This document shows positions 33,199 to 61,810 of a DNA stretch of 64,000 nt, in pieces. The notes under the pieces were generated by a model that saw only the letters and a program-made list of their open reading frames with translations, made no database searches and was not told the DNA's origin. Position 1 is the stretch's first letter. Each line of letters opens with the position of its first letter. The position numbers were made by a program, and so were the translations under genes. This DNA comes from a virus (lineage: Duplodnaviria; Caudoviricetes). The DNA is taken from IMG/VR virus record IMGVR_UViG_3300025924_000001, positions 1 to 64,000 of that record; one strand, given 5' to 3'.

Positions 33199-36100
33199 GT
33201 CGTCCCCCTTCCGAACAGCGACAACCCGTTGGTGGGATTCCGGTTGTTGTACCGAAGCGTCTGCGTCTGGTTCACCGTGGCGAGCCGGCTCTCCGCGATG
33301 ACCGACCCCTCGACGTTGTTGTTGATGATGAGAACGCCACCGCCGGCGCCGGCAGCGAGCCCGGCGAGGCCACTGGGGATCCCGAGGGACCTCGGGTTGA
33401 GGCCGAGGTTGCCGCCGCGGGTGAGCTCCGACGCGATCGCGTTGACCGCGGATCGGATGGCGGGCATGCCGTTCAGCATGCCCATCGCGATGCCGGTGCT
33501 GAGGTGGATGCCGACCTCGTCGGCCATGCGCTTCGACGGTGAGCCGTGCTTGAACGCGTCCTTGAAGCCCTGAATCACGCCGGCCGCGAAGTTCATGATC
33601 TGGTCGTTCAGCCAGCCGGCAGCGTTCAGCATGCCGTGCACGAGGCCCTGAACGATCGCGAAGCCGGTGTTGATGAGCCAGGTGTTCGCGTTGCTCAGCA
33701 GGTTGAGGATCTTCCCGGGAAGGTCGCGGAACCACTTCCAGATGGCGTCGGCCGCCTGGTTGACGCCGTTGAGGAAGCCGGCGATGACCTCCATCGACCG
33801 GGCGAAGAGCCAGTTGCTGGCTCCCGTGAGGAAGTCGTCGATCCTCTTGGGCAGGTCGTTGAACCACTTCCAGAGCTCGAGAGCCTTCTTCTCGATCCCG
33901 TTCAGGAAGCCGTTGATCACGTCCTGGCCGTTCTTGTCGATCCAGTCCTTCGCGGTTGAGGTCGAGTCCTTGATCTTCTTAGGCAGGTCGACGCTGAAGT
34001 ACTTGACGACGGCCTCCGACGCCGACTTGATCCCGTCGATGATCGCCTGGCCGAGCTTGTTGCCCTCGCGCTGAATCGTTCCGACGAGCTCACCGAGCGC
34101 GTAGCCGATCTTGTAGGGCAGGTTGTTGAACGTGTCGATAACCAGCTTGCCGGCGTCGCTCGCCTTTCGCTGCAGCGTCCTCATCGCCTCGTCCCACTTC
34201 GAGCTGAGGCTGCTGCCAAGGCTGTTGAGGGCGTCACTGATCTTCTTCGGAAGACCCTGGGCCCACTGAATGAGGGACAGGCTCAGGTCGCCGAGCTTCT
34301 TCGGCAGGCTGACGAGCCACTCGCCAACCGCGGCCTCGTTCTTCATGAAGTCGGCGAAGCCCTTGCCGGCCTTGTCGAACGCCCACACGAGCCCCTCGAT
34401 CAGCTTGACCGAGATCAGGGTGATCACCTCGAGGAGGGGAACCATCTGCTTGACCAGGTCGGTGACGACCGGGATCAGTGGGGCAAGCGCTGGGATGATC
34501 TGCATCCACGCCTTACCGAGGTCCTCGAGCGCGGGCGACAGCTTCTTGATCATGTCAAGCGCCTCAGCGAGGAGGACCTTGACGAGCTGGGTGAGGGGTG
34601 GCAGCAGCGGCTTGATCGCCTCGACGAACGTCTTCATGTTCGTCCCGAGTTCCTCGCCGAACGCCTTCGCGATGTCGCTGATGAGCGGCAGCAGGGGAAT
34701 GATCGCCTTCGCGATGGCGTCGAGGCCGTCGAACAGTGCGCCGAGCGCCGGTGAGACCGCCGCGAGCACGTCGACGAGCAGCTCGCCGATCACCTTGACG
34801 AGGTCGCGGAACAGGTTAGCGAGCGGGGCCATCATCGGTTCCATGGCCTTGAAGGCCTCACCGATGACGACGACGACCTCCTTGAACGCCTCGCCGATCG
34901 CGTTGTTTCCCGACATGGACTTGAAGGTGCCGTCGAGCAGCTTCAGGAGGTCGATCATCGCCGGCATCATCACGTTGCCGATGCTGATGGCGGTCGCCTC
35001 GAGCTGAGCCTTGAACTTTGCGAACGCGAAGCTGAGGTTGCCCTGGACCTCGGAGAAGCCGAGAACGTCACCGTTCGCGTCCGTCGTCGCCGCACCCACG
35101 GCCTTGATCGCGTTGGTCAGCGAGTCGGCGCCGTCACCGGTTGCCTCCAGGGCCGCCTGCAGGCCGGGTGACGTGCCGATCAGCTTCTTCATCGCCTCGG
35201 GAACGGACTGCCCGACGGCGGCGGCGTTCTTCTCCGCAACCTGTCGCAGGTACTCGAGGGTGCCGGCGAGGCCGTCGGTGCCGAGGTGCTTCTTCACCTC
35301 GTCCTCCGAGGTGCCGAGCTCGGCGAACTCCTTCTTCATCTGCGTCGTGGGTGCGATGATGCTCTTGATCGCCGCGGCGACGTCCTGCGCGGCGCGCTGT
35401 GCGGTGGTGCCGTGGGCGGTCATCGCGGCCTCAACCGAGGCGACGTCGGCGAACGACAGGCCGACCGACGCGGCGATGGGCAGCACGGTGGCGAGGGACT
35501 TCGAGAAGGCGTCGAAGTTGGTCTTACCGAAGGAGATCGCCTCAACCATCTTGCTGGTGATGTCACCCGCGTCGCTGGCGGTGAGGTTGTAGTCCTTCAT
35601 GACCGTGGTGACGGCGTCCGCGACGTGGGACAGGTCGGCGCCCTCGTCCCTCGCGCCCTGCGCCGCGGCCTGCATCACCTTGAGACCATCCGCGGCGTGG
35701 TAGCCGGCGGACTCGATCGGGTACATCGCCTGAGCCATCTCGTTGGCCGTGAAGCCAACCTTCGTGGACATGTCCAGCAGGCCCTGGCTGACCAGGCCCA
35801 CGGCGCTCGACGACTCACCCGCGCTGGTCACGAGCCGGGTCACCGCGGCCTGGAAGTCACCGGCCATCGTGAGGCTCGCGGCACCGACCGCGGCGACCGC
35901 GAGGCCGGCCTTCTCCGCGATGGAACCGATGGAGGCTCCCGCGGCACCGAACGCCTCGCTCGAGCCCGCGGTCTTCGCGGCGGCTCCCTCGGACGCGGCC
36001 GCGGCCGCGTCCTGCGCCGCCGCGGCCGCGTCCGCGGCCTCACCGAGACGCGCGAGGGCGGCTGAGGCCTCGTCGGAGGACAGGACGATGCTCGCCGCGG

Positions 36101-41365: not shown

Positions 41366-41662
41366 TCAAACGGTACGAATCGGAATGCCTGTAAGGGGCA
41401 CCGCCAATACACACATACCAGTGTCAAACATGGTGACACGCTCGATTTTGATGATCGATCGCGTGATGGGATTGCGACATTCAGTCACATTTGGAAACAT
41501 TCCATTTGGAACCCGAATGACGCAAATTTCGTTGCGTCCGCCTTCCCACGCCGCTTTGCACGCTTCGGTGATCTCGTTCATGAAATCGGTTAGCGTATAA
41601 GGCGGAACGATTTCGTCCTGACTTCCATAGCGCACGCACGGGCTTCCGTCCAGGCTCACCAC
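41366..41662 (-). CDS. hypothetical protein in low-GC insert
   Basis: about 47% GC in a counted 60-nt line; atypical codons; start uncertain. Confidence 0.45.
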   Translation of the reverse strand: MVSLDGSPCVRYGSQDEIVPPYTLTDFMNEITEACKAAWEGGRNEICVIRVPNGMFPNVTECRNPITRSIIKIERVTMFDTGMCVLAVPLTGIPIRTV

Positions 41663-42279
41663 CGGTCACCGCGACCGGACGTGTTTCCTTGAACGCCGGG
41701 CGCGCCCACACCGTGGTGGTACCAGTACCATGTCCGACGGGGCACGTGGTGCACCCGCGCACCCAGCTGGCAGCAGTTCACGGTGAACTGGAAGTCCTCA
41801 CCGTAGACCTGCCCGTCAACCTCGTCGGCCTCGGGCGGGGTGAACCGGGCGGCCTGCGCGAGCTCGGTGCGAACGAGGGTGGTGACCGTCGTCTGGTGCG
41901 GGTCGGCGGGGTCGAACGGTCGGCCGAGGTGGCCGAGCGGGTCGATCTCCGGCCGGTCGTTGTTAGCGCCATCGCGCACCATGTAGTAGCTGTAGACGTA
42001 GTCGGCGTTCGTCTCGAGCGCGGCGCAGTACAGGATCTCGAGGTGGTTGGGCATGAACGCGTCGTCGTCGTCGAGAAACGCGACCCACTCGGTGCGGACC
42101 GCGTCGAGCGCCCGCTGCCGGGTGACGCCGGCACCGGCGTGGTTGACGTCCTGCGCGACCGACACGTTCCACGCGGGAAGGGTCTGCGTGCTGACCGACT
42201 GCAGGGCCCGGAGAAGGTGGTCTCGCCGCGGTGGGATCGTGGGGACGCAGACCGTGATGTCACCCTTGCCTGCCGCCAT
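41656..42279 (-). CDS. glycosyltransferase family 2 (GT-A)
   Basis: VCVPT, ALQSV..QT, GAGVTRQ, FLDDDD, EDF. Confidence 0.88.
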   Translation of the reverse strand: MAAGKGDITVCVPTIPPRRDHLLRALQSVSTQTLPAWNVSVAQDVNHAGAGVTRQRALDAVRTEWVAFLDDDDAFMPNHLEILYCAALETNADYVYSYYMVRDGANNDRPEIDPLGHLGRPFDPADPHQTTVTTLVRTELAQAARFTPPEADEVDGQVYGEDFQFTVNCCQLGARVHHVPRRTWYWYHHGVGAPGVQGNTSGRGDRW

Positions 42280-42923
42280 CACGTCGCGTCTCCCCTCACC
42301 GCGAGAACCACCTGGAACATCGACCACGTCTCGTGTCGAAGGATCACGTAGCCAGCCTGCTCCAGCAGCGACCGGTAGCCGTCCTGATCCCACGCCCAGG
42401 TGTGGTACCCGTAGTGTGACCGGTCGGTCTCAACGTGGGGGCTCGACGCGACCAGGTAGCGAGAGCGACGCGCGACCCGTCGAACGAACTCGTGCGGGTC
42501 GAGCAGGTGCTCCAGCATCTCCGTCGCGATCGCGAGGTCACCCCACGTCACCGACCGAGGATCGGTGACCACGTCCAGGTAGGAGACGTTGGTGAGGCCT
42601 CGCTTCGATCGTGCGGCTTCCACGTTGGCCGGCGCGAGGTCGTAGCCCCACGCCGTCCAGGGGAGAACAATCTCGCCCCTCGCGGCCTCCTCAGCCAGGC
42701 GGTCCGAGATCAGCTTCAGCAGTCCACCGTCGCCACAACCCAGGTCCACGACGGTTGAGGCACCGAGGCGCAGAATGGCGTACGTCGCGAGGTCGCAGGC
42801 GAGATCCAGTCGTCCCCGGTGCTCCGCCTGGTCCACGTGCGGGGCGCTCTCTCGATCCTCGTACCAGCCGGGCGTGGTCCACTCGGGAAGCGTTCCAGGC
42901 TCGAACAGCTGCCACTCGGTCAC
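42279..42923 (-). CDS. class I SAM-dependent methyltransferase
   Basis: VVDLGCGDGG, GYD, TEMLEHL.DP, SSP. Confidence 0.85.
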   Translation of the reverse strand: MTEWQLFEPGTLPEWTTPGWYEDRESAPHVDQAEHRGRLDLACDLATYAILRLGASTVVDLGCGDGGLLKLISDRLAEEAARGEIVLPWTAWGYDLAPANVEAARSKRGLTNVSYLDVVTDPRSVTWGDLAIATEMLEHLLDPHEFVRRVARRSRYLVASSPHVETDRSHYGYHTWAWDQDGYRSLLEQAGYVILRHETWSMFQVVLAVRGDAT

Positions 42924-43486
42924 CGGGACCGCCAGCAGGCGTGAATCTGGTAGTCGTAGGTGAAGTGTGGTCGCAGCTTGAGCTCGATGGTTGAGTGAGG
43001 CTCCCAGCCGGCGCCGCGAAGCATCGCCTTGACGTCGTCGACGCCCCACCCCCAGTAGTGCTCAGGGTTGCCGTCGTCTGCCTCATCGATGGGGGTCGAC
43101 ACGATGAGGTGGTGGGCGCGGCCGTGGATCCGACGAAGGACCGCGTCGGGGTCGTCGAGGTGCTCGATCGTCTCGGAGCAGATGAAGAGGTCGACCCCGC
43201 CGAGCTCCTCGAGGGTCTCCTCGATCGGCCCCACGTGAAGGTAGCCGGGCGCGTAGTCACCGAAGCTCTTGGTCACGCCCCGAAGCGACTCGAGGATCGC
43301 ACCGTCGCCGCAGGACAGGTCGGCGGCGGACGTGCAGCCGTGCTGGTCAATGACCCACTGCGCGAGCTCGGCGGTGACCCGCACGCGAACGAGGTGATCG
43401 GCCCAGCGCGTGTGGTTGTGCGGCGTCGCGTAGATCCGGGCGAGCTCGGCGTCGGAGTGCTTGGGACGCAACCGAACGCGGGTCAC
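42920..43486 (-). CDS. class I SAM-dependent methyltransferase
   Basis: ADLSCGDG, CSETIEHLDDP, STP, NPEH. Confidence 0.82.
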   Translation of the reverse strand: MTRVRLRPKHSDAELARIYATPHNHTRWADHLVRVRVTAELAQWVIDQHGCTSAADLSCGDGAILESLRGVTKSFGDYAPGYLHVGPIEETLEELGGVDLFICSETIEHLDDPDAVLRRIHGRAHHLIVSTPIDEADDGNPEHYWGWGVDDVKAMLRGAGWEPHSTIELKLRPHFTYDYQIHACWRSR

Positions 43487-44154
43487 AGGGCGTTCCTCAT
43501 CGTCGCGAGGTCGTCGTTGAGCTGGGTCACGCAGTACGTCTGATAGGCCGCCTGGTCGCGGTTGAACATGGTTCCCGTGTTCACGGCCTGGTAGCGCTCG
43601 TCGTTCTCGGCCTTGCCCACGATGGGGTGCAGGTGCTCGATGACGACGTCGTTGAGGTACGCGAGCCGACCGAGGCCGTAGCCCCAGTCCTTCCACACGT
43701 TGTCGACGTAGAGGTGCCTCAGCGTGGGCGGGGCCATGTAGCCGAGGGCCTGAACCAGCCGGGCGTCGAGCGCGACCGCGGTGGGCAGGTTGATCCCGTG
43801 CACGAGGTCGTTACCGTAGGCGACGCCACCGCCCATGAGAGCGATCGCGTCGACGAGCCGGGCGTCCCAGCCCTCGGTGCGCGGCACGTGGTCGTCGCCG
43901 AGGAACGCGAGGCAGGTGCTGTCCGCGGCGTGTCGCGCGACGAGCTGGTTGAGCGCGCCCACCATGCCGGGTCCCGCGGGCTCAACGACGGTGACCGGCG
44001 CGGCCTTGCGGTAGGCGTCGAGGTCCTCGTCATCGGCGTCGACGCCGAGCACGAGCTGCGTGTCGGCGCGGTTGAGCGCGGTCATCGCCTCCGCGAGGCG
44101 GATCGCGTTCGCGACGCGGCCTCGGGTGGGCACGAGAACGGTGAGATCGGTCAT
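43483..44154 (-). CDS. glycosyltransferase (GT-A, GT2-like)
   Basis: VLVPTRGR, FLGDDH.PRT.GWD, H.YVDN, IEHLHP. Confidence 0.82.
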   Translation of the reverse strand: MTDLTVLVPTRGRVANAIRLAEAMTALNRADTQLVLGVDADDEDLDAYRKAAPVTVVEPAGPGMVGALNQLVARHAADSTCLAFLGDDHVPRTEGWDARLVDAIALMGGGVAYGNDLVHGINLPTAVALDARLVQALGYMAPPTLRHLYVDNVWKDWGYGLGRLAYLNDVVIEHLHPIVGKAENDERYQAVNTGTMFNRDQAAYQTYCVTQLNDDLATMRNAL

Positions 44155-45068
44155 ACCAGTGACCTTAACGCACGGCTGATGCCGTCCTCGAGGGTGACCT
44201 TGGGAGCGTAGAACTTGAGCATCTCGGTGGGGTCGCCGACGCGGCTGGTGACCCCCACGGGCGCCTCGGTGAGGTGCTTGAGCTGGGGGCTGTAGCCGGC
44301 CGCCGTGGTGACGAGGCGCGCGAGCTCGTTGAACGACGTCGCGCGGCCGGTGCACAGGTTGACGGTGTCGGTGAAGCCCTGATCGACCGCGGCGAGGACC
44401 GCGCCGACAACGTCGTCGACGTGGATGAAGTCGCGAAGCTGCTCCCCGTTGCCCCAGACCTCGAACGGGTCATCTCGACGCAGGGCCCGGTGAATGAACG
44501 ACGGGAAGGGGTAGTCGAGGTCCTGATCGGTGCCGTAGCCGCTGAACGGTCGAAACACGTGGACCCGCAGGCCAGCGGCTCGTGCGTGCTCAGCGAGCAC
44601 CTCGCCGGTCAGCTTGGCCCAACCGTAGGTGAGGTCGGGCCTGCCGAACGCGTCATCCTCATGGTTGATCCACTTCTCGATCAACGGCATGCCGCGCATG
44701 AGGTCGTTCTCCCACGCCCGCGGCGAGAGGCCCTGCAGGTTCGTGGGGTAGGCAGCGGAGCTCGAGAAGTAGACGACCGCGCCGGGTTGGGTTCGCAGCG
44801 CCCACTGGAAGAGCTCGGCGTCGATCGCGAGGTCGACGGCGACCCTCAGCGGCGCGCCCTCGATCGTCGTGCGGCCACCGACCACGGCGGCGCAGTGGAT
44901 GACGAGGTCGTAGTGCCGCGAGTTGAAGCGGAAGAAGTCGCGGGCGTCGACGCGGTAGGCGTCCCGGACGTCGAAGCCGGTGACCGAGTAGCCGAGGGCG
45001 GTCAGTCGGTTCAGCATGTGACGGCCGATGAAGCCCTGATGACCGGTGACCAGCGCCCGCTTGCTCAC
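44151..45068 (-). CDS. NAD-dependent nucleotide-sugar epimerase/dehydratase (extended SDR)
   Basis: VTGHQGFIG, HCAA, SSSAAY, YGWAK, RDFIHVDD. Confidence 0.92.
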   Translation of the reverse strand: MSKRALVTGHQGFIGRHMLNRLTALGYSVTGFDVRDAYRVDARDFFRFNSRHYDLVIHCAAVVGGRTTIEGAPLRVAVDLAIDAELFQWALRTQPGAVVYFSSSAAYPTNLQGLSPRAWENDLMRGMPLIEKWINHEDDAFGRPDLTYGWAKLTGEVLAEHARAAGLRVHVFRPFSGYGTDQDLDYPFPSFIHRALRRDDPFEVWGNGEQLRDFIHVDDVVGAVLAAVDQGFTDTVNLCTGRATSFNELARLVTTAAGYSPQLKHLTEAPVGVTSRVGDPTEMLKFYAPKVTLEDGISRALRSLV

Positions 45069-46048
45069 GTCAGCAGCACCCTCTCCCACCGCCACAGGTT
45101 GTCCTCGATCAGGCTATTCGCAGCGACGTAGCTGCGGGCGTGCGCGCTCATCTTCTCGCGGAGCCGCGCGTCACCGAGCAGCTCGCGCAGGTAGATCGCC
45201 CACTCGTGCGGTCGGTCCACCAGGAAGCCGGTCTCGCCGTGACGAACGTAATCCGCGTAGGGGCCGCAGTTCGACGCGATGATGGGGATGCCGAGCGCGC
45301 CGTACTCCATCGCCTTCAGCGCCGACTTTGACTTGTTGAACAACGACGGCCGTAGGGGAGCGAGGCCGAGGTCGAAGTCGATCGACCGCAGGTAGTCGTC
45401 GATCTCGCCGTGCCACTCCGAGTGGCGCCACAGGTTCTTGGGCCACTTCTCGACGAGGTTGTGACCCATGATGTGCAGCTCCGCCTGGGGCACGCGAGTG
45501 AGAAACCGCCGCAGCTCGCTGCTGAGCTCGGTCCAGTCACCGACGTGCGTGGCGCTGCCCGCGTAGCCGACCGTCACGCGGTCGCTGACGTGCTCCCGCT
45601 CGTGGTCGATGAGCCAGCTCGAGACGTGGTTCGGGATCACCTCGATGGGCGCGGTGGTGTACTCGCTGAGCCGGTTCGCGAGGTGATCCGTCGTCGTCGT
45701 CACGACGTCGGCGACCGCGAGGTTCCGCTTGGCTCGTTCCTGCATCTCAGGCTTGAAGAAATTGTGCGCGATCGCGTTCGAGCCCTCGATGTTCCATAGG
45801 TCGTCATCGAACTCGAGAACGACCTTGACACTGCCCTTGCGGGCCGTCCTCTGGATCCACTCCGTGGGTCCCTCGAGGACCACGCGCTGCGCGATCACGA
45901 CGTCGACGTTGCCGAGCGCGACGTCCGCGGGCATGCTGCCATCGTAGAAGACGTCGTAGCCACGGGCCTTGAGCGCGTTGAACGGCTGCTTGACCCGATA
46001 GTAGCCGCAGCCGCTGTGGTCGCAGAGCCAGCCGAAGACGCGGGTCAC
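45065..46048 (-). CDS. glycosyltransferase (GT-B, GT4-like)
   Basis: GCGYYR, EFDDDL, GYAGS..H, FNKSKS.LK.MEY, HGETGFL. Confidence 0.88.
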   Translation of the reverse strand: MTRVFGWLCDHSGCGYYRVKQPFNALKARGYDVFYDGSMPADVALGNVDVVIAQRVVLEGPTEWIQRTARKGSVKVVLEFDDDLWNIEGSNAIAHNFFKPEMQERAKRNLAVADVVTTTTDHLANRLSEYTTAPIEVIPNHVSSWLIDHEREHVSDRVTVGYAGSATHVGDWTELSSELRRFLTRVPQAELHIMGHNLVEKWPKNLWRHSEWHGEIDDYLRSIDFDLGLAPLRPSLFNKSKSALKAMEYGALGIPIIASNCGPYADYVRHGETGFLVDRPHEWAIYLRELLGDARLREKMSAHARSYVAANSLIEDNLWRWERVLLT

Positions 46049-50669: not shown

Positions 50670-53570
50670 CTACTTGAAACCGGTCATCTTCTTCAGCTCC
50701 CGCCACGCAACTTCCCGCTGCATCGGGTCGGGGTCGTTCCGCCACTGGTGGTGCAGTGCCTGGAACACGGACTCCTGAGCGCGCTCCGCGCGGCTCACGG
50801 ACGGCAGCACCTCCGGTGCCACCGCCTTGTTGATCTGGTCGAACGCGACGCCGCGGTAGGGACCCACCGGGTCCGGCTGCTCGGCGAGCGCCTCCAGCTT
50901 CTTGCGGGTCTTCTTGAGGTCCTTCCGAAGGTCGGCGACCTCGGCGTCTCGGGCCGCGTTGACGTCGGCGACGGCCTTCGTGATCATCTCCTGGACGGTC
51001 ACGAGGTCGAGGGTGACGGCCTTGGTGACCTCGGTCGTGACGGTCTTCTCGGCCTCAACGACCTCGGTCGCCGCGGCCTCGACCCTCACCTTCTTGGGCT
51101 TGGCGGCCTTGGCCGCACCGGCACCGTGCGGTGCTGGGCCGCCGACCCCCACCGGCACCGGACGAGAGCCCGGCAGCGAGCCGCCGTAGGGGCTGCCGCT
51201 GGGCGCGGTTGGGCAGAGGTCGGGGAAGGTCTGCGCGATGTGGTCGTGCATGGCCAGCATGGCCTGCCGCGCGTTGTCCTTCATCGCGTTGGTGTAGTAG
51301 GTGCGGGTGGGGACGCCGGTCACCGACGGTGGGCTCACCGGTCGCATCGGGTTGCTGCCGCTCGCGGGTGTCTCGGAGGCGCGACCCGCGGTGAGGTAGC
51401 CGTGGTTGAACTGCGCCGCGGAGATCGACCCGAACGGGTTGGGCGCGGTGTTGGGGCCGCCGTGGCCCGGCGACGCGGCCTCGTGACCGGCCGTGACGAG
51501 CGGACGGTTGTAGGAGCGGCCGTTCATCGAGCCCGGGGCGGGGAAGGTGCCGGGACCGGGGTTCGCGTCGCGGAACTCCTTGTACAGCTCCGACTTCGCC
51601 TCGAGCAGGTAGCGCGGGTCGGTTCCCTTGAGGGTGACCACGTGCTGCCACAGGTCGTTCGCCTTGCGGGCCTGGTCGAGCGGCGCGGACGCGGCCATCT
51701 CGAAGGCCTTGCGCTGCCAGTGGTTCGGGTCGAGGCTGGACAGGTCGTAGCTGGGGTAGCTCTTCGCGACGTCGTCTGGGTGGAAGCACGGGCAGGTCAG
51801 GTCGTGCAGCACGCCGTAGTCCGCGGGAACGTTGAGCATCTTCAGCCGCATCGACGCCGAGCCCTCGTGGTCGCCGGGGAAGATGAGGTCCGCGGTCTTC
51901 ACGCTCGAGTCGGGAACGGTGGGCAGCTTCGCGTCGTGCTCGAGGGCCTCGATCGCGGGGCCGTCCGGCTCGCGGTGCGCCGGCACCGGGTCGGCGTCCT
52001 CGGTCTCCTCGACGCCGTCGGTGGGCGTCGCCTTCTTCTCGGCCTTCACCTTCTTGCCCTTGTGGCTCGCCCGGATCTTGCCGCCGGTGGCCTCGTCGTC
52101 ATCCCCACCGTCGCCGTTCTCACCGCCGGCGGCCTTGACCTTGCTGTCCGCCTCCGGCAGGTAGCCGGGGTGGGCCTTGCCGCAGGACGGGCAGAACTTC
52201 TCGCCCTTGTCGAGCTGGTAGCCGCAGCCGAGGCACGTGAAGTCGTGGTTCTTCTTGACCGCGAGCGCGCCCTTGAGCTTGCCGCCGCACTCGGGGCAGA
52301 AGTTGTGCTCGGCGTGCAGGTTCGCCCCACAGCCGGGGCACATGACCTTGTCCTTCTTCTCGACGGTGACGACCTTCTCGACGGTCGGCTCGACGGCCTT
52401 CTCGCCGTCGTCGCACTTCTCCGTCTCGTTCTCGTCCTCGTCGTCGGCCTTGGCGCTGCCGGCGCCGCCGGTCCCGGCACCGGCGGTGCCGCCGCCGGCC
52501 TCACCCGCGCCGGCGCTGCCGCCGCTCGTGCCGCTGCCGCCACCGGTGGAGCCGGCCTTCGCCTCGTCGGGCTCCTCGTCCTTCGTGGCGTCCGGCTCGT
52601 CCATGGTCTTCGCCTCGGTGACGTCGTCCTCGACGGTGTCGACGTCGATCACCTTCTCGCTGTCGCTCATGCCGAGCTCCTTCTTCCAGCTCTCGGGGAG
52701 CCGGGCCACGAAGGCGGCACCCTTGCGTCGGGCGATGCGAATGATGCTGCTCTTCAGGTCCTCGGGCGACTTGTTGTCGTCGCCGGCGCGGCCGATCGAG
52801 GTCGCGGCGTCGTGCACGTCCTGAGGGGTGACGATGGGGAAGGAGCGGTCGGTGCCCGCGAAGTCACCGGCGGGGATCGCGTCGCGATCGGTGCCGCCAC
52901 CCACGTTGGGGTCCACGTCGCGCTTCACGACGCCCTCGTGACCGGTGAGTGCCTTAGCGACGTCGGCCGGGGTGACGCGCTCACCCTCGTACGTGACGCC
53001 GCGCTTCACGACGATCTCGGTGACGTCGCCCAGCATCTTGCCCACGAACTCGGGGTCACCGTCGGCGCCGGCGGCCTTCACGAGCTGGAACTTCGAGTTG
53101 AAGTTGCTGCCGCGGTCGACGAGGCTGATCTCACTGATCTTGGTGAGGCCGTCGCGGCGGCCGCGGATGATGCCGTTCATGGCCTTGCCGGTGGGGTCCG
53201 GCACGATGTCCGGGTGCGTGATGCCCACCGAGTAGCAGGTCAGGACGCCCTTGCGAACGAGCTCCTTGGCCACGGGCTCCACGACGAGGGACTTGACCCA
53301 GTGCCCGTCGGGGGTCGCCTCCACCTCGAGGCCCCTGCCGGCCGGGTCCCGGCGAGCCTGGTGCTGCACCCGCACGTTGCCGCCGGTCTCGAGCCACTCG
53401 TGGATCGCCTTCGCGGACCAGTCCTGGTCGACGATCTGCAGGTCGCTGTCGACGGTGCCGTCGGTGGCCTTGCCGTAGACGATGAGGTCGCCGTCGGCCG
53501 TCTCCTCGGTCTTCTCGATGGGGAACGAGAAGTAGGTCAGCTCGCCGTCGGGGGTGAGGGTTGCGGCCAC
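50670..53570 (-). CDS. capsid maturation protease/scaffold multidomain protein
   Basis: HK97-type protease (VYGKAT, VRVQH, YSVG, EISLVDR); DUF6582-like DFAG..RSFPI; double Zn ribbon; C-terminal coiled coil. Confidence 0.85.
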   Translation of the reverse strand: MAATLTPDGELTYFSFPIEKTEETADGDLIVYGKATDGTVDSDLQIVDQDWSAKAIHEWLETGGNVRVQHQARRDPAGRGLEVEATPDGHWVKSLVVEPVAKELVRKGVLTCYSVGITHPDIVPDPTGKAMNGIIRGRRDGLTKISEISLVDRGSNFNSKFQLVKAAGADGDPEFVGKMLGDVTEIVVKRGVTYEGERVTPADVAKALTGHEGVVKRDVDPNVGGGTDRDAIPAGDFAGTDRSFPIVTPQDVHDAATSIGRAGDDNKSPEDLKSSIIRIARRKGAAFVARLPESWKKELGMSDSEKVIDVDTVEDDVTEAKTMDEPDATKDEEPDEAKAGSTGGGSGTSGGSAGAGEAGGGTAGAGTGGAGSAKADDEDENETEKCDDGEKAVEPTVEKVVTVEKKDKVMCPGCGANLHAEHNFCPECGGKLKGALAVKKNHDFTCLGCGYQLDKGEKFCPSCGKAHPGYLPEADSKVKAAGGENGDGGDDDEATGGKIRASHKGKKVKAEKKATPTDGVEETEDADPVPAHREPDGPAIEALEHDAKLPTVPDSSVKTADLIFPGDHEGSASMRLKMLNVPADYGVLHDLTCPCFHPDDVAKSYPSYDLSSLDPNHWQRKAFEMAASAPLDQARKANDLWQHVVTLKGTDPRYLLEAKSELYKEFRDANPGPGTFPAPGSMNGRSYNRPLVTAGHEAASPGHGGPNTAPNPFGSISAAQFNHGYLTAGRASETPASGSNPMRPVSPPSVTGVPTRTYYTNAMKDNARQAMLAMHDHIAQTFPDLCPTAPSGSPYGGSLPGSRPVPVGVGGPAPHGAGAAKAAKPKKVRVEAAATEVVEAEKTVTTEVTKAVTLDLVTVQEMITKAVADVNAARDAEVADLRKDLKKTRKKLEALAEQPDPVGPYRGVAFDQINKAVAPEVLPSVSRAERAQESVFQALHHQWRNDPDPMQREVAWRELKKMTGFK

Positions 53571-53585: not shown

Positions 53586-56500
53586 TCAGTCCGTCGTCTT
53601 GTTGAGGTGATCGCTGCCGTGGTGAATCTGGAACGAGTGCGCCTCGTCCCACGGCCCGACCACGGAGTGGACGGTGCCGACGTACGCGTTGAGGGGCTTG
53701 CCGAGGCGCTGGGCGGCCAGGGCGCGGTGGTGACCGTCGATCACCTTGAGCTTGGGGTCACCGGGGGTGTCGACGAGGATCGCGGGGTGCAGGGTTTCGC
53801 CGGCCCTCAGTCGCTCCACGAAGCGGTCGACGGCGGCGGCCTCGTGGTGAGCCGCCCACCGAGCCTCGTTGCTGAAGTCGAGCAGGCTCGTGGGGACGTC
53901 GGTGGGGCCAACCCACCTCGCGTCGTCAACCCACGCGTAGCCCTCAGCGCTGAAGTTCCGGCTCATCAAGGCCGCGACCTCGTCGGCGGTCGCCGATCGC
54001 GTCCCATCCAGGTAGGTGTCTCGACCCAGCGCGCTGAGCACGAGCTGCAGGTCGTCACGGAGCTCGGCGCGAACCGAGGGGTTGTCGACCAGGTGAGCCG
54101 GGTCCCACCACGCGAGCGCCTCAACCTGGTCCCCGTCGGGGTCGTCGGGGTTGGTGACGCGGTCGCGGCCGTCGAAGATCGGCACGTCGGCCTCGGACGC
54201 AACCTCGTAGACGAAGCCCAGCCAGCGACCGCTCTCCGTTCCCCAACCGGGAACGAACCGCCCGACGGGGAGGACGCAGCCGGTCTCCTCCTGCCACTCC
54301 CGAACCGCGGCGCTGCGCGGCTGCTCACCGGGTTCCAGGCAGCCGCCGGGAAACTCCCACGTGCCGGCGGCCCGGTCGGGCGGCTCAGTTCCGACGAGGT
54401 CGGACACGCTCTGGTCACCGTAGGGCACGTCGTGGCTGATGGAGCCGTCGGCGTGGGACCACCAGTCACCGCTGTCCAGCCCCCACGCGAGCGGCAGACC
54501 GCAGGGGCAGTGCGTGGGACCAACCGCGCGCTGCAGCATGAGCACGCGACCGGTGTCGGCGGCGCGCACCGCGAGCCCGGCGGCGACGCAGGCGCCCTTG
54601 GTCGCGGTGCGACCCTCCCACCGGTCGCACACGTCGATCAGGTCGATCGAGCCCCACACGAGGTCGCACTCGTGGGTGTCGAGGTGGAACATCACGCAGG
54701 TGCCGCAGGATCGAGCGCGGCTCTCAGCCGGCCGGTAGTGAACCGACTCCTTGGACACCTTGACGCGCTTGCCGAGATCGCTCACGCTCGGCGCGCGGCC
54801 CCGGTCGTTCACGTCACCGGGAACGTCGCTGATCGCGGCCTGGCCGGCGCCGTGGCCACCCTGCGGCCAGTAGCCAGTGGGTCGCGCGTCGACGTCGGTT
54901 TGGTGGCCCTGGGTCAGGGGTACCCGGTCGTCGCGACCGCCGGAGGGGTGATGCGCTTGAGATCGGTCGGAACCATCGTAGAAGCCACCCATGTAGCCGT
55001 TGGGCGGCTGTGAGGTCCACCGTGGGGGCTCACCCCCGGCCGTGCCTCCCGGGACCCCACCGGGCACCTCGGTGCCGTCTCCCAGGTGCCGGACCGGGGA
55101 TCGACCGCCGCCGCCGGCCGCGTTGAGCGGCACGGCCGAGTCGATCCAGCTCTCCTGACCGTTGAGGCTGACCACGCGGCGGGTCGCCTTGACCACGCGG
55201 ATCGCGTCGTCGATCTCCAGGCCCTCAGCCAGGTGCTGAGCGATGCGAGCGAGCGCCGCCTGGTTGACGTTCCGCGGCACCCACGTGCTGACCTGCCGGC
55301 CCTTCTTGACGTGACGGCTCAAGGCCTCGAGCTCGCTGCTCACGGCCTTCGCGAGGGACGCCGCGTCCGCCTTCTTTGCGGGCGCGGCGGCCTGCGGCTT
55401 GGCCGCGGAGCGCGGCGGCGTCTTCTGGTCGCCGGTCGCCGAGGCGTGACCCGGCGTCTCGGGGTGCTGCGGTGCCGCTGCCTGGGTCGGAACGTCGGCC
55501 TGGCCGGTGCTCTGGGTCTGGGCGGTGCCGGTCGCGGTGACCGGCAGCTCCGGCTTCAGGCCCGACAGGGAGAGCTGGCCGGGGTCGCCGACACCGGGCT
55601 CGTCGGTCGTGCCAGCGGTGACCGCACCGAACGGCACGGGACCGTTCTTGCTGAGGAAGACGGGGCCGCTCGTCTCCGGTAGGCCCCACGGTTGCAGGTT
55701 GAGCTTGTCGCGGGCCTCGTCGACGCTGCGCAGCCCGTTCTCGACCTGCTTGATGAGCAGGTCGGTGATGAGGGCCTCGTCCTCCTCCGCCTCGAGGCCC
55801 TCGAAGACGAACTGCATGTCGTCCTGGCCACAGACGTACTCGAGGATGTTGTTGATGATGTCCGCGATGAACATGAGCGTCGGCTTGGTTGCCTTGCGCT
55901 CGCCCACGTTCTCGGCCATCTTCGCCATCTGGTGGGACGCGCCGGGCGACATCGACGTGCTGACCTTGGGGGCGATGCCCAGCTCCATGGGCATGATGTC
56001 GAACGCCATGCAGACCTGGGTCATGACGATCTCGTCGAACGCGTCGGCGAGCTGGACGCCGCGCTGCGGCTCCACCTTCGTCCCCGGCGGCAGAACAATG
56101 ATCTTATGGTGCCAGGCGGGGTCGCCGGCGAACGCGTTGAGCGCGTCCTGCAGCTCCCGAATCTGGTTCGGCGTCATGTTCTCGTCGCCGGGCGACATGT
56201 AGACGGCCGGGACGGTGCCCTCACGGAAGTAGTCGAGCTGGTAGCCCTGCTTCTGCAGCCCGGACAGAACGGGGATCATCGCGCGTTCGATGGGCGGGAA
56301 GCCGTACGGCGTCCACCGGCGAGGAACCATCGGCACATACAGCAGCTGGTCGCCCCGGAACTGACCGACCTCGCTGCCGCGGAGGCCGCCATCCTGGATG
56401 TCCATGTCCGTCAGCATTTTGATGAAATCGCTGCGGGGGACGCCGTAGAGGTACTGCTGGTAGGCCGGCGCCGGCGGAGCCGGGTAGCCGCCGTGCATGT

Positions 56501-57212
56501 CGTAGAGCGGGCGGATGGTCGGGCCGCTGATCAGGTTCAGGCTGTCGAGGTCGCTGCCGAGCAGGCCCTTCCGCATGCCACGGCCGCGCTTCGGCCGGAG
56601 GAACAGGGACAGGGCGTCGAACACGAACACCTCCTCGAGGAAGGCGTCGATGAACGTGCTCCAGCTGTAGTAGTCCGGGTCGGGCCGCTTGAAGAACTTC
56701 TTGGCCTTGGCGCGGCGCTCACCGAAATCCTTGAACCACGCCTTGTCGCCGCGGTTTGCCTTGGCGGCCTCCTGCGTGGGCAGGATGTCCCACTCGAGGC
56801 CGCGGATCTCCGACTTGCGAAGCTGAATGCAGGCCCGGGCCACGGAGTAGAGATCGGCGAGGGTCCGCAGGGTACTGAAGCTAGCGAGCTTGAGGCCCTC
56901 CGAGCCGGGCGTGCCGACGGGGAGGTTCCACCCGACGCGGTACTCCTCGCGGCGAGGGTCGGCGCGGCCGGACGCGGGATCCGGCTCGTCGACCGGCACC
57001 GGCAGGATCGGGCTGAACGGCCCGAACGCGCCCTGCGTGAAGGTCGCGGTTGGCCGTGGCAGGAAGCCGGCGTAGGCGTTGGCGTAGCCGTGCTGGTCAG
57101 CCAGCTGCATCGCGAGCGGTGAGATCGCGCCGGTGCCCTGCGGCGGTGGCGTGGGTCGGGCGCCGCCGGGTGAGTACCGCGCGGCGCGCAGGATGGACCT
57201 AGTTGACGCCAC
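53586..57212 (-). CDS. portal protein with C-terminal HiPIP-like, NUDIX and ParB-like domains
   Basis: portal motifs (LRTLA, YGFPPIE, YFREGTVP, PMELG, SVDEAR..L.L.P); CxxC-x8-C-x12-CxxW; GGxxEPGExxxxAAxRExxEETG; IDGHHR. Confidence 0.88.
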   Translation of the reverse strand: MASTRSILRAARYSPGGARPTPPPQGTGAISPLAMQLADQHGYANAYAGFLPRPTATFTQGAFGPFSPILPVPVDEPDPASGRADPRREEYRVGWNLPVGTPGSEGLKLASFSTLRTLADLYSVARACIQLRKSEIRGLEWDILPTQEAAKANRGDKAWFKDFGERRAKAKKFFKRPDPDYYSWSTFIDAFLEEVFVFDALSLFLRPKRGRGMRKGLLGSDLDSLNLISGPTIRPLYDMHGGYPAPPAPAYQQYLYGVPRSDFIKMLTDMDIQDGGLRGSEVGQFRGDQLLYVPMVPRRWTPYGFPPIERAMIPVLSGLQKQGYQLDYFREGTVPAVYMSPGDENMTPNQIRELQDALNAFAGDPAWHHKIIVLPPGTKVEPQRGVQLADAFDEIVMTQVCMAFDIMPMELGIAPKVSTSMSPGASHQMAKMAENVGERKATKPTLMFIADIINNILEYVCGQDDMQFVFEGLEAEEDEALITDLLIKQVENGLRSVDEARDKLNLQPWGLPETSGPVFLSKNGPVPFGAVTAGTTDEPGVGDPGQLSLSGLKPELPVTATGTAQTQSTGQADVPTQAAAPQHPETPGHASATGDQKTPPRSAAKPQAAAPAKKADAASLAKAVSSELEALSRHVKKGRQVSTWVPRNVNQAALARIAQHLAEGLEIDDAIRVVKATRRVVSLNGQESWIDSAVPLNAAGGGGRSPVRHLGDGTEVPGGVPGGTAGGEPPRWTSQPPNGYMGGFYDGSDRSQAHHPSGGRDDRVPLTQGHQTDVDARPTGYWPQGGHGAGQAAISDVPGDVNDRGRAPSVSDLGKRVKVSKESVHYRPAESRARSCGTCVMFHLDTHECDLVWGSIDLIDVCDRWEGRTATKGACVAAGLAVRAADTGRVLMLQRAVGPTHCPCGLPLAWGLDSGDWWSHADGSISHDVPYGDQSVSDLVGTEPPDRAAGTWEFPGGCLEPGEQPRSAAVREWQEETGCVLPVGRFVPGWGTESGRWLGFVYEVASEADVPIFDGRDRVTNPDDPDGDQVEALAWWDPAHLVDNPSVRAELRDDLQLVLSALGRDTYLDGTRSATADEVAALMSRNFSAEGYAWVDDARWVGPTDVPTSLLDFSNEARWAAHHEAAAVDRFVERLRAGETLHPAILVDTPGDPKLKVIDGHHRALAAQRLGKPLNAYVGTVHSVVGPWDEAHSFQIHHGSDHLNKTTD

Positions 57213-58183: not shown

Positions 58184-58524
58184 GGTTCCTCGGTCTCCTC
58201 GCTGGGATCGTCGACGTCCTCGGGATAGACCACGCGGCTCGCGTCCCAGGTCGGCCAGTACGTGAACTCGGTGACGTCACCGTCGCCGTTGAGCTTGCCG
58301 CTCGCGAGCCTGGGGCACGCGGGGGTTGAGGAGCCGGCGTGGATGCCGGCGCAGAAGCGGCAGAGGCCGCCGTCGGCGGCGACCTTCTCGAGCTCCTCGC
58401 GCTCAGCCCGGCTGATCGGCAGGCGAGGTTGGCTGCCGAGCAGGCGCTGTGCGCTGCTGACCGCGGCGAGCGCGGCGAGGTCGAGCTGCGAGTGCGGTGA
58501 GGGGCTCGCGCCGGGCATCGTCAT
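58180..58524 (-). CDS. hypothetical Zn-binding protein
   Basis: CRFCAGIH...ACPR. Confidence 0.6.
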   Translation of the reverse strand: MTMPGASPSPHSQLDLAALAAVSSAQRLLGSQPRLPISRAEREELEKVAADGGLCRFCAGIHAGSSTPACPRLASGKLNGDGDVTEFTYWPTWDASRVVYPEDVDDPSEETEEP

Positions 58525-59924
58525 CAGTACGCTCCCACGAGGGGAATGAAGCCGGTGTTGGTGCCGACGCTGGTTGGGTTGAATGACGCCGGTAAACCAG
58601 ACTGGCCGTTGAGATAGAACGAGCGACGGTTGCCGGCGTTGCTGACGCCGAGGCCGAGCCACGGGGCGTTGAGGTCGTTGGCGCCGAGCGCGTACGGGAC
58701 GTTGACGCCCGTGAAGCCACCGAGGATGTAGAGGATGTAGACGAAGCGGCCGGTTCCCTGCGCGGCGACCGTGGTGATGCCGCCGCTGGTCCAGCCCGCG
58801 AGGTTCCACAGGTTGTTGTCGTTGGGCGACACCTGCAGCTGCGTGCCGCTGTCGTTGTAGATGCCGAGCTGGTTGGGCACCGCGGAGGAAGAGTAGGTGC
58901 CACCGGTCCGCACGGCCGCGACGAGCGTTGACAGCGCGGTGTTGGCCGGCACGTAACACCGCGCACCGAAGACGGTGCCGCTGGCGAGACCGGAGATGTT
59001 CTGGAACAGCATCGGGTCATCGCTCGCGGTCAGCAGGCCATAGCCGCTGAGGGGGTAGACGGGTCCACCGGCCGCGGCTGGTGCGGCCCACTTGACGCCG
59101 ACGGTCTGAGCGGCGTCCGCGGTGAGGACGAAGGTGTCGGTGCCGACCGGGAGGTGGACGGGCGCGCCGCCACTGATCGCGACGATCAGGTCACCCTTGG
59201 CGGTGAGGAGCGTGTTCTCGATGGCGTTGACGATGCGGCTGTCGTTGCCGGCCGCCACGGTTCCACCCGTGGTTCCCACGTTCAGGGTTGCGGCCCCACC
59301 GAGCCCCAGGCTGCCTCGGGCCCCGGTGACGCTGACGACGTCCGACAAGTTGTTGGCTGCCTGCAGGGACCCAGTGATGCGAGAGTCGTTCCCGGCTGCG
59401 ACCGTCCCAGCGGTCGTACCGACGCTCAACACCGCAGCGCCGCCGAGACCGAGGTTCGCGCGAGACCCGCTCGGACTGGCCACGTCGGACAGGTTGTTCG
59501 CGGCCTGGAGCGCGCCAGTGATGCGGCCGTCGTTGCCGGCGGCCGCAGTGCTCGAGCTCGTGCCGAGCTGGTAGAGCTGGTACCAGATCGCGGCGTTGGT
59601 CACGACGCTCTCGGCGACGAAGTACGCGGACGTGCTCGTGTTGAGCCACACCGACGTGATCGAGTAGCCCTGGGTGCCGTCGTCCGTCGCGGTGGGGTTT
59701 CGCGTCGCGGTGAAGTTGTTCTGAACGCCACTTCCGCCGCCGAACGGGGTGGGTGCCGGCCAGGCGCCGTTGGCCTTGGGACCATAGAACACGGACGTGT
59801 TGGACGTGTTGAGGTAGAAGTCGCCGTTGAAACCGAGCGAGTTGCTGGGGGCTCCCACCCCGGACAGCCAGCCGGTGCCGCGGGGACCGGAGGTGCCAGC
59901 GGTCGTGATGGTGACGTTGACCAC
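58524..59924 (-). CDS. fibre-like virion protein with [10 protein letters not shown] repeats
   Basis: GAPS..LG..GDFYL..YGPK..GAW N-terminus; two to three ~40-aa repeats ([28 protein letters not shown]). Confidence 0.75.
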
Positions 59925-59936
59925 CCGTGGTCCTCC

Positions 59937-60311
59937 CTAGGGCTGCGCGACCGTGCGGCCGTAGAAGACGCCGGCGACGAGCGCCGTGGCGTCGCTCAGG
60001 TTGGGGTCCATCCAGAGCGTGTAGCTCGCGCCGTACTCCGAGAGCAGGTTGGTCGCCGTGGGGGTCAGAACGACCTGCAGGGTCGACGTGCTGCTCGTGA
60101 CGGTGATCGTGCCGGCGCTCGTGGAGGCGGTGCTGTTGACGAGGAAGACGGTTGCGCCGGACTGGTTGCTGCGAACGACGAGCTCAAACGTCTTGTTGGT
60201 GATGTTCGTCAGGGAGCCGTCGTCGTTGGTGACCTGGTAGCTCTGCGCCCACTGCGAGCCGATGGGTGCGATGGCCTGGAAGAAGTTGGGCAGGGGAGCC
60301 GGCTGGGTCAC
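59937..60311 (-). CDS. BppU-like/Ig-like virion protein
   Basis: GT.TV...LQVVLTPTAT..L...Y.L pattern. Confidence 0.5.
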   Translation of the reverse strand: MTQPAPLPNFFQAIAPIGSQWAQSYQVTNDDGSLTNITNKTFELVVRSNQSGATVFLVNSTASTSAGTITVTSSTSTLQVVLTPTATNLLSEYGASYTLWMDPNLSDATALVAGVFYGRTVAQP

Positions 60312-61810
60312 GCGGCCTCCTCGATGCCGGCCCCGCAGTGCGGGCACTTGTCGCGGGCGACGCCGCCGCTGGTCTTGGTGAACGGCTTCTCGCACCGGTG
60401 GCACTTGACGACGCCGTAGGCGTCGAGCCACGAGCCGCCGATGAGGTCCTTGAGGTCGTAGAACGCCCAGACGCAGGCGTCCATTCGGTCCGGGGACTCG
60501 GGGTCACCCGGCGCCCAGGTACACATCTCGTCCTCGAGCTGGGGGAAGATCCCCACGTGGTGGATGCGGTGCTGCTCGTAGAGGGCGGAGACGGGCTCGG
60601 CGCGGGTGTTCTTGCCGCGGCTCGCCCGCACCGATCGGAACGACACGTTGTTGTCGACGGCGCGAAGGACCGTGCCGATGTAGTCGCCGCCGTTGTTGAC
60701 CTCGGCGACGATCCGGTCGGCCTCGAACTCGTGGTAGGCGTCCACGGCGCGGCGCATGCACTGCTGTGGGGTGCCGCGCATCGTGTAGTCGGCGAGGACG
60801 TAGCCGTTTCCCTCGCGGTCCGCGGCCGCGACGACGATGCCGGTGAGGTCGCTGGTCTCGCCGCTCGTGACGGAGGGGTCGACGCCGACGACGACGCGCA
60901 CCAGGTCGAGGTTCTCGCGGGCCTCAACGGGTAGACGGTCGTTCTCGAGCCACTCGCGCTTCCACAGGGCGTTGTCCCGGTTCTCGAGGATCTCGGCGTC
61001 GAGCTCCTGCAGGCCGAGCTGGGTGCCGAGCATCGGGGCGATGACGTTGGCCTTGTAGCTGTCGCTGAGGTTCTCGAGGTTGTCGACGGTGCGGCCGCGG
61101 GTGACGATGACGTTGTCGCGCTGCATGAGCCCCGGCGTCGCGAGCTTCGTGTCGGAGACACGGAGCAGGGCCACGGGGCGGGGCGTGGTGGCGACGACGA
61201 TCCGGCTCACGTAGTCGAGCGGCCAGTCGGGGCGGCGGGGAAGGCGGGTCGCGATGGTCAGGTTGGACCACGTGGTGTCGGCCGCGGTGCCCTTGTGGGC
61301 GTCGGCCCAGAAGCAGGACTCGTCGCCCCACCCGAAGTGAAACTGCGGACCGCGGAGCTGCCAGGGCTTCTCCGCGGAGTACGTGAAGAACTTGCTGCCG
61401 TTCTCGAGGTAGAGCTCACCGAGGGAGCGGTTCCACGCGCCGTTGATCTTGCCGCCGCGGAGCTCGGTCTGCTTGAAGCAGTTGAGCAGCCCCGAGTCGC
61501 CCTCGATCATGGTGTCGCGGGTGTCGCCGATGGTGCGGGCGACGAGCGCGATGCGGCAGCCGGGGTACCGCCGGGCCTTCTCCGCCATGAGCTCGGCGGC
61601 GGTGCGGGACTTGCCCCAGCCACGGCCGGCGAGGATCAGCCAGACGAACCAGTTTCCCTCGGGCTCGAGCTGGTCGGGGCGGGCGGTCTCGCGCCAGGTG
61701 CGCTTGTGACCGTCACCGTTGTCGATGTCGGTCTTCTTCTGCTGCAGCTCGCGGAGGCGACGCAGCTTGTCGAGCTTGACCTCCAGGAGAGTGTCGACCA
61801 CGGCGCTCAC
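60308..61810 (-). CDS. terL: terminase large subunit
   Basis: AGRGWGKS, LRGPQ, WGDE, TTPRP, GVDPS, KxxRAEP, SPDRMDA; C-terminal Zn ribbon. Confidence 0.95.
   Translation of the reverse strand: MSAVVDTLLEVKLDKLRRLRELQQKKTDIDNGDGHKRTWRETARPDQLEPEGNWFVWLILAGRGWGKSRTAAELMAEKARRYPGCRIALVARTIGDTRDTMIEGDSGLLNCFKQTELRGGKINGAWNRSLGELYLENGSKFFTYSAEKPWQLRGPQFHFGWGDESCFWADAHKGTAADTTWSNLTIATRLPRRPDWPLDYVSRIVVATTPRPVALLRVSDTKLATPGLMQRDNVIVTRGRTVDNLENLSDSYKANVIAPMLGTQLGLQELDAEILENRDNALWKREWLENDRLPVEARENLDLVRVVVGVDPSVTSGETSDLTGIVVAAADREGNGYVLADYTMRGTPQQCMRRAVDAYHEFEADRIVAEVNNGGDYIGTVLRAVDNNVSFRSVRASRGKNTRAEPVSALYEQHRIHHVGIFPQLEDEMCTWAPGDPESPDRMDACVWAFYDLKDLIGGSWLDAYGVVKCHRCEKPFTKTSGGVARDKCPHCGAGIEEAA

Follow-up and report, generated by a model that had tools for sequence, protein, structure and literature searches.

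We examined the portal gene of a soil-type tailed phage (Duplodnaviria; Caudoviricetes) whose reading frame continues beyond the portal core through three further modules: a small module homologous to HiPIPs (high-potential iron-sulfur proteins), a Nudix hydrolase domain and a ParB/Srx-type domain. The window analyzed here is the whole stretch of 64,000 nucleotides, positions 1 to 64,000 of IMG/VR record IMGVR_UViG_3300025924_000001, and the source record is a complete virus genome, 111,864 bp long, which has direct terminal repeats and approximately 68% G+C. An earlier reading of this DNA from its letters alone (hereafter the sequence-only reading) had described the gene as a portal polyprotein with enzymatic cargo, and its coordinates for the three cargo modules proved right to within a few codons. 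The gene and its parts, in order of translation, are:

53586..57212, minus strand: the whole portal fusion gene, one open reading frame (ORF) of 1208 codons with a GTG start at 57212 and the stop codon at 53586-53588
55593..56975 (aa ~80-540), minus strand: portal core, from Pfam PF04860 and phrog_2662
55368..55595 (aa 540-615), minus strand: low-complexity linker rich in Pro, Ala, Thr and Gln, read directly; G+C at third codon positions (GC3) 0.92
55113..55370 (aa 615-700), minus strand: conserved helical 'mid' module with the motif EL..L.RH.RKGR....W
54780..55115 (aa 700-811), minus strand: Gly/Pro-rich linker, read directly; GC3 0.79
54597..54779 (aa 812-872), minus strand: mini-HiPIP domain, from profiles, an AlphaFold2 model and Foldseek
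54618-54743 (aa 824-865), minus strand: HiPIP-like motif, where the sequence-only reading had placed it
54015..54596 (aa 873-1066), minus strand: Nudix hydrolase domain, Pfam PF00293 at 52.6 bits (cut-off 21.1) with the excised domain
54432..54509, minus strand: Cys/His insert in the Nudix domain, CPCG ... HADGSISH, with C902, C904, H920 and H927
54276-54344 (aa 957-979), minus strand: Nudix box, intact, G-x5-E-x7-REWQEETG
54129-54152, minus strand: family-specific NPDDPDGD motif, part of NPDDPDGD..EALAWW
53589..53999 (aa 1072-1208), minus strand: ParB/Srx-type domain, from PHROG, PDB-profile and NCBIfam matches
53724-53738, minus strand: DGHHR motif, invariant in a 12-sequence alignment (A2); its conservation across 116 domains is 90% or higher

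The frame runs without interruption from the portal into the cargo, as the sequence-only reading had maintained. Gene callers of public collections place the start at M35 (ATG 57108-57110), which gives a protein of 1174 aa. GC3 is of the coding type in every segment of the ORF (0.79-0.94), both low-complexity linkers included. Seven homologues from other samples (labels P0003-P0010) align with the protein from end to end at 68-83% identity, and its C-terminal 400 residues are present in viral contigs in copies that are 76-99% identical. The full-length homologues together with the copies in independent contigs exclude a hidden stop codon or an assembly join; a sequencing error masking a stop codon was one of the outcomes that the sequence-only reading had named as fatal to its own description. 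The chance that two or more genes were fused by such an error is therefore negligible. The same unbroken architecture recurs in independent contigs of many samples at 68-99% identity, GC3 is uniform along the whole ORF, and we found no point in favor of a merge, which may be taken as effectively refuted already.

The portal core itself is recognized by Pfam Phage_portal (PF04860) with 46 bits against a cut-off of 39.1, over aa 125-505 and model positions 3-321 of 321, and by phrog_2662 over aa 77-666 (E 1.8e-46). These matches, followed by the linker at aa 540-615, agree with the portal core and Pro/Ala linker described earlier. The 'mid' module is present in 80 of 120 homologues, and its first part falls under the portal PHROGs, whose matches extend to aa 666-673. 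In four relatives (P0030, P0043, P0064 and P0114) the portal is interrupted at residue ~401 or 432 by an insertion of ~360-380 aa; precomputed Pfam annotation places Hint_2 on those of P0030 and P0043 and LAGLIDADG_3 on that of P0064, and the insertions are probably inteins. The Pfam MuF family (PF04233) has no match anywhere in the complete genome, in agreement with the earlier statement that there is no separate MuF gene. Relatives carry MuF inside the same polypeptide, unlike the portal fusion studied here. The host is probably actinobacterial, since this would fit the high G+C, the relatedness of the portal to those of Arthrobacter phages, homologues labeled Nocardioides, and a single genome match in a metagenome-assembled genome (MAG) of Actinocrinis.

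The identity of the small module between the second linker and the Nudix domain rests on profile searches and on its predicted fold. Its predicted cluster ligands are C836, C839, C849 and C862, with Y826, F842 and W865 as shielding residues. A profile of 11 domains matches PioC, a 54-residue Rhodopseudomonas palustris protein documented as a [4Fe-4S] HiPIP (PMC7462912), over its full length (E 1.8e-6). A profile of 80 sequences (A3) matches PioC (6xyv) with E 5.3e-9, the Rhodothermus HiPIP (3h31) with 5.7e-7, 1isu with 1.7e-3 and 1hlq with 9.6e-3, followed by three more HiPIPs and no other convincing family, and it aligns all four cysteines with the cluster ligands of PioC. The NCBIfam model for Iro, the Acidithiobacillus HiPIP, also matches the module (E 0.006), and a single-sequence search of the PDB with the domain gave no match. 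AlphaFold2 with the 80-sequence alignment returned a model with a predicted local distance difference test score (pLDDT) of 90.3; a model from the 11-sequence alignment reached a pLDDT of 54 and was discarded. When the former was compared with the PDB by Foldseek, all 17 matches were HiPIPs, with TM scores of 0.6-0.7 (TMq 0.48-0.67) and E-values that were all at least 0.049, modest as expected for 55 residues. Across 151 domain instances (148 cluster representatives) conservation is 99-100% for the four cysteines and 99% for the shielding Tyr. In one homologue, P0034, the second cluster Cys is replaced by Trp (CGNW for CGNC), a rare substitution with which the cluster may have been lost.

We therefore accept that the module is homologous to the [4Fe-4S] HiPIPs, and from its sequence it is expected to bind such a cluster. 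The sequence-only reading had called a HiPIP-like motif here and proposed a domain-wise profile search with an AlphaFold model as the check; that check upheld the call. It had also suggested a possible redox sensor, of which the homology stands and the sensor role is speculation. The phage module and the known HiPIPs (6xyv, 3h31, 1isu, 1hlq; PMC7462912) are alike in length (~54 aa), in their four cysteines and in predicted fold, and have in common the ligand pattern Y...CxxCxxF...CxLVxGxI....VCxxW. However, the G-[WY] that precedes the last Cys of known HiPIPs is D/x-V in the phage module, and the setting is very different: known HiPIPs, most of them from Proteobacteria, are exported by the Tat route and carry electrons in the periplasm as free proteins, whereas the phage module is an internal part of a 1208-aa head protein or else a phage protein of 55-65 aa that lacks a signal.

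Homologues of the module are numerous. Among 1.84 billion cluster representatives, a profile search found 2,438 proteins at E<=1e-3, 334 of them at E<=1e-10. Of the 150 best matches, about half are stand-alone proteins, 48-70 aa long, in which by direct reading the domain begins at the start, with no leader; in the longer proteins the sequence also includes a portal, MuF or Nudix domain or that of a Mu-like prohead protease. Fold matches in BFVD place the domain on proteins from uncultured phages that bear the names prohead protease, XkdF, SppA, zeta toxin and ParB/Srx. Another such match is a protein of 67 aa from Synechococcus phage S-SRM01, which has a HiPIP profile label in UniProt. Automatic UniProt labels thus already give HiPIP for a few phage proteins. 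The module has no family in Pfam or PHROGs, and 50,697 GenBank phage records gave no tblastn match to the domain or to two stand-alone homologues. A locus search of a genome collection with alignment A1 returned one locus only, that of the Actinocrinis MAG, in which portal, ParB-like and HiPIP modules share a single ORF; prophage copies thus appear to be rare in species-representative genomes. Our literature search found no paper that ties HiPIP to phage head proteins, and neither Iyer 2017 (PMC5512222) nor its 2022 successor (PMC9503650) mentions an Fe-S or HiPIP domain. Since portal-enzyme fusions have already been published, the HiPIP module is the only fresh part of the architecture. The lambda tail-tip protein gpL is discussed in PMC10721106 as having a [4Fe-4S] cluster, and thus offers a precedent for a particle-borne Fe-S cluster such as the phage module would have. 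It differs in having an unrelated fold and a place at the tail tip rather than in the head interior, and no sequence relation is claimed.

The Nudix domain that follows was correctly called from the sequence, box included. The consensus GX5EX7REUXEEXGU can be read directly as G CLEPG E QPRSAAV RE W Q EE T G C, and in 120 homologues conservation of both the box and the NPDDPDGD..EALAWW motif is 90% or higher. Ahead of the box, 14 proteins have an insertion of ~50 residues in which C-x-C-G ... H-x-D-G-S-x-S-H is kept in every case. This is the H/C-rich insert of the sequence-only reading, here C902-x-C904 ... H920 ... H927, and its residues suggest a probable Cys2His2 zinc site, although metal binding is a prediction from the sequence. 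Matches to named Nudix subfamilies are confined to the region of the box. BLASTP against T4 NudE likewise gives an alignment centered on the box (E 0.001, 26% identity over 82 aa), a marginal relation.

The assignment of the C-terminal domain to the ParB/Srx superfamily has moderate support, and to that extent the earlier call of a ParB/Srx-like domain stands. The excised domain matches phrog_1033, a ParB-like partition protein, with E 1.3e-6. The 12-sequence profile A2 matches the free serine kinase SerK (5x0e, E 2e-4) and PF0380 (1vk1, 1.3e-3), and weakly SbnI (0.1), while NCBIfam gives SerK (E 2e-4) and parB_part (0.0085), both far under the curated cut-offs. None of the Pfam ParB families matches this sequence at E<=1. 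Language-model (Atlas) features, which we take only as a lead, place 15 of 30 neighbors in ParB_N clusters. The DGHHR of the phage domain aligns with the DGHHR of SerK and contains the G-x-x-R nucleotide-binding motif. SerK, PF0380 and SbnI (5ujd) have the ParB/Srx N-terminal core and this motif in common with the phage domain. However, only ~60 residues align with the SerK-type kinases (E 2e-4), and the C-terminal substrate domain of the kinases is missing from the phage domain, a short conserved tail (PW.ETHS.Q) taking its place.

The modules recur together, shuffled and sometimes split. With residues 810-1208 as the query, 583 proteins were matched at E<=1e-3. In nearly all of them Nudix is combined with PF04860 (portal), PF04233 (MuF) or PF06074 (Mu-type portal), and some also bear ART, zeta-toxin, AAA_33 or 2H phosphoesterase domains. 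Among the best 120, a sample biased by a query that contained all three modules, 114 have both Nudix and a ParB-like domain, whichever of the two comes first, and 47 have the HiPIP module. The orders met most often at 100 viral loci are portal-mid-HiPIP-Nudix-ParB (16), portal-mid-Nudix-ParB (14) and portal-mid-ParB-HiPIP-Nudix (8). Several viral loci have the Nudix or HiPIP module as its own ORF immediately after the portal gene: in L064, L065, L081, L089, L092 and L093 a stand-alone mini-HiPIP ORF lies directly downstream of a portal-Nudix-ParB gene, and in L020, L042, L070 and L080 the portal ORF stops after the ParB-like domain and Nudix opens a separate downstream ORF. At L106:1109-1279 a stand-alone HiPIP ORF and the stop of a Phage_min_cap2 (MuF-like) gene overlap. 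Of other stand-alone HiPIP genes, one lies among phage replication genes and one in an uncharacterized phage-like contig. This pattern of fusion and fission indicates that the modules are functionally tied to head proteins. We had also considered an obligate adjacency of HiPIP and Nudix, which always touch in the first 120 proteins; viral contigs in which the order is Nudix-ParB-HiPIP, or in which HiPIP has an ORF to itself, led us to reject it.

The gene belongs to a late-gene string in the order large terminase, two further ORFs, portal, and then a gene for a 966-aa product. Two of these neighbors are:

60308..61810, minus strand: large terminase subunit, phrog_979 E 1.6e-32, upstream in the late string
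50670..53570, minus strand: the next gene, 966 aa, which starts 15 nt after the portal stop

The 966-aa product has a double zinc ribbon at aa 403-470 (Pfam DZR E 8.9e-9), acidic and Gly-rich linkers, and a C-terminus that resembles a coiled-coil scaffold. Its N-terminus (aa 1-200) gives weak leads to a prohead protease (phrog_9427 E 0.0011; Atlas features 0.94), and the gene may be a protease-scaffold fusion. PDB sequence searches with this N-terminus and with the following 601-aa gene returned nothing useful. Between terminase and portal, a 466-aa ORF (58524-59924, minus strand) matches tail-fiber and collar-fiber PHROGs (phrog_2282 2.6e-11), an unusual position for such a gene. Elsewhere, glycosyltransferase and NDP-sugar epimerase genes lie within the structural module (41656-46048, minus strand; phrog_7162 6e-62, phrog_540 6e-51, phrog_14775 3e-40), and a 1618-aa protein encoded after the tape measure (29011-33867, minus strand) has phosphodiesterase-type and minor-head/tail-fiber PHROG matches.

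Several published systems are comparable. Nudix domains like that of T4 NudE are fused to MuF, portal and head protease, and their packaging and injection have been predicted (Iyer et al. 2022, PMC9503650, section 3.5.2); for head-anchored Nudix and similar enzymes this is thus an already published inference, and a plausible one. Polyvalent multi-domain proteins anchored by MuF or portal have been inferred to be first-strike effectors (Iyer, Burroughs, Anand, de Souza, Aravind 2017, PMC5512222), and a large polyvalent protein was detected by proteomics in phi24B virions (bioRxiv 10.64898/2026.04.10.717836). The polyvalent proteins and the portal fusion alike have several enzyme domains per chain, a head-protein anchor and a place among virion genes, with freely shuffled module order and ParB-superfamily domains as hubs. 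However, the polyvalent proteins of PMC5512222 have a DdrB-type ParB, and that of the portal fusion is not demonstrably of this type. Close counterparts from cultured phages are gp3 of Arthrobacter phages Sonali and Mufasa8, annotated 'portal and MuF-like fusion protein', in which a portal is followed in frame by Nudix in a terminase-portal late cluster. The matched parts are ~30% identical and cover query aa 86-1055 in two pieces (43-44% coverage). Only portal and Nudix are matched, and tblastn shows no HiPIP-like or ParB-like module in gp3; in contrast to the 'portal and MuF-like fusion', the protein studied here has no Pfam MuF domain. With a head anchor encoded among virion genes and at least two effector-type domains (portal plus HiPIP, Nudix and ParB/Srx), it has the make-up of a head-anchored effector, and it is distinguished by its HiPIP-type module, a ParB/Srx domain that is SerK-like and not DdrB-like, the Cys/His insert in Nudix and the missing MuF domain.

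Portals are dodecamers with their C-termini toward the capsid interior, and MuF-type and Alt-type proteins travel in phage heads. We consider it fairly probable that the fusion protein is a portal-anchored enzyme kit inside the head, a 'polyvalent' cargo carrier. The ~540 N-terminal residues would form the dodecameric portal ring, and the long flexible linkers would hang the three globular modules inside the head, in up to 12 copies each. There the PioC-like mini-HiPIP would hold an air-stable [4Fe-4S] cluster, the Nudix domain would be a pyrophosphohydrolase with its catalytic box intact and a probable zinc-binding insert, and the ParB/Srx domain, of the DGHHR (SerK/SbnI-like) kind, would bind nucleotide. 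The cargo would enter the cell via the tail channel, probably after the linker is cut, and at the very start of infection would act on small molecules of the nucleotide type or on targets with a nucleotide cap or modification. The air stability of a HiPIP-type cluster would suit a cofactor that survives outside cells. Capsid location, cleavage, ejection, cluster binding and substrates are all things that we infer. A more specific and much less probable proposal is that the phages' own signal-less mini-HiPIP family, with at least 2,400 clusters and found in or beside head-internal proteins (portal, MuF, prohead protease and zeta-toxin carriers), provides a [4Fe-4S] cluster in the capsid as a redox switch or electron donor. 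On meeting the reducing cytoplasm, the cluster might then activate the adjacent Nudix and ParB-type enzymes, or free the cargo.

Several points weigh against the enzyme-kit reading. The portal stays with the capsid, so delivery requires cleavage, and no cleavage site was found. Cleavage is also implied by the word 'polyprotein' in the sequence-only reading, whose four domain calls, single frame and missing MuF gene hold. Peptidase_S78 (PF04586) has no match in the genome, and a prohead protease is not securely identified. The passage of folded Fe-S and Nudix domains through the tail channel may fail, and the Nudix substrate cannot be read from sequence, which applies equally to the alarm nucleotides and ADP-ribose proposed in the sequence-only reading. 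When A2 was compared by hhalign with the ParB domain of P1 DdrB, the probability was 0.3% (E 0.2), a weak negative because the template was a single sequence. Finally, Pfam HIPIP (PF01355) matches neither the domain nor anything in the genome at E<=10, nor any of the alignment members, sub-threshold matches (E 0.03-0.08) being found on two stand-alone homologues only. This failure of Pfam would also fit a structural zinc knuckle, or a metal-free module, whose HiPIP likeness is an evolutionary remnant, as would the Trp in place of the second Cys in P0034 and the lack of a Tat signal in a phage of Gram-positive type, far from the periplasmic setting of known HiPIPs. However, the near-invariance of the four ligand cysteines and of the cluster-shielding Tyr in 151 domains, a full-length PioC profile match that aligns all four ligands, and a high-confidence model that matches HiPIP folds only make this alternative improbable.

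Two other alternatives concern where and when the cargo works. It may never be released, staying tethered to the portal and working within the capsid or its precursor, the procapsid. The ParB-type domain might, for example, grip the first or last packaged DNA end in a manner that depends on nucleotide and Nudix act on nucleotides close to the packaging motor, with the HiPIP as a stable structural knot. The covalent fusion to the portal is consistent with this, as is the fact that neither a cleavage site nor a secure protease was found. ParB N-terminal domains are established as nucleotide-dependent DNA clamps in cells, and the three modules remain together across hundreds of head proteins. However, the same modules are borne by MuF-type proteins, a class that SPP1-like phages eject, and lie beside ART, zeta-toxin and 2H domains that are sensible only in a host cell; the modules also occur as separate genes, so that a tether is not required. 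We therefore regard permanent tethering as unlikely. Less likely still is an action late in the producer cell, before or during head assembly, with the portal fusion serving only co-expression and stoichiometry, as in the removal of nucleotide signals from defense systems that sense portal or terminase. The gene does lie within the late structural operon, and PMC9503650 raises head-linked enzymes that counter immunity against the packaging apparatus, but the use of three head-internal anchors (portal, MuF and prohead protease) argues for physical targeting to the head and not for mere co-expression.

Head-anchored enzyme cargo is thought to be the phage's first strike on host defenses, and almost none of it has been tested. 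To the portal-Nudix design the present gene adds two unstudied parts, the HiPIP-type module and the SerK-like ParB/Srx domain. The latter accompanies Nudix in most relatives, and the pairing suggests a two-enzyme nucleotide chemistry. The former would be an unusual cofactor for a capsid, and the capsid would be an unexpected place for a family whose known members are all electron carriers of the periplasm. The value of the finding lies mainly in this uncharacterized family of phage mini-HiPIPs, which is large enough for a family definition of its own.

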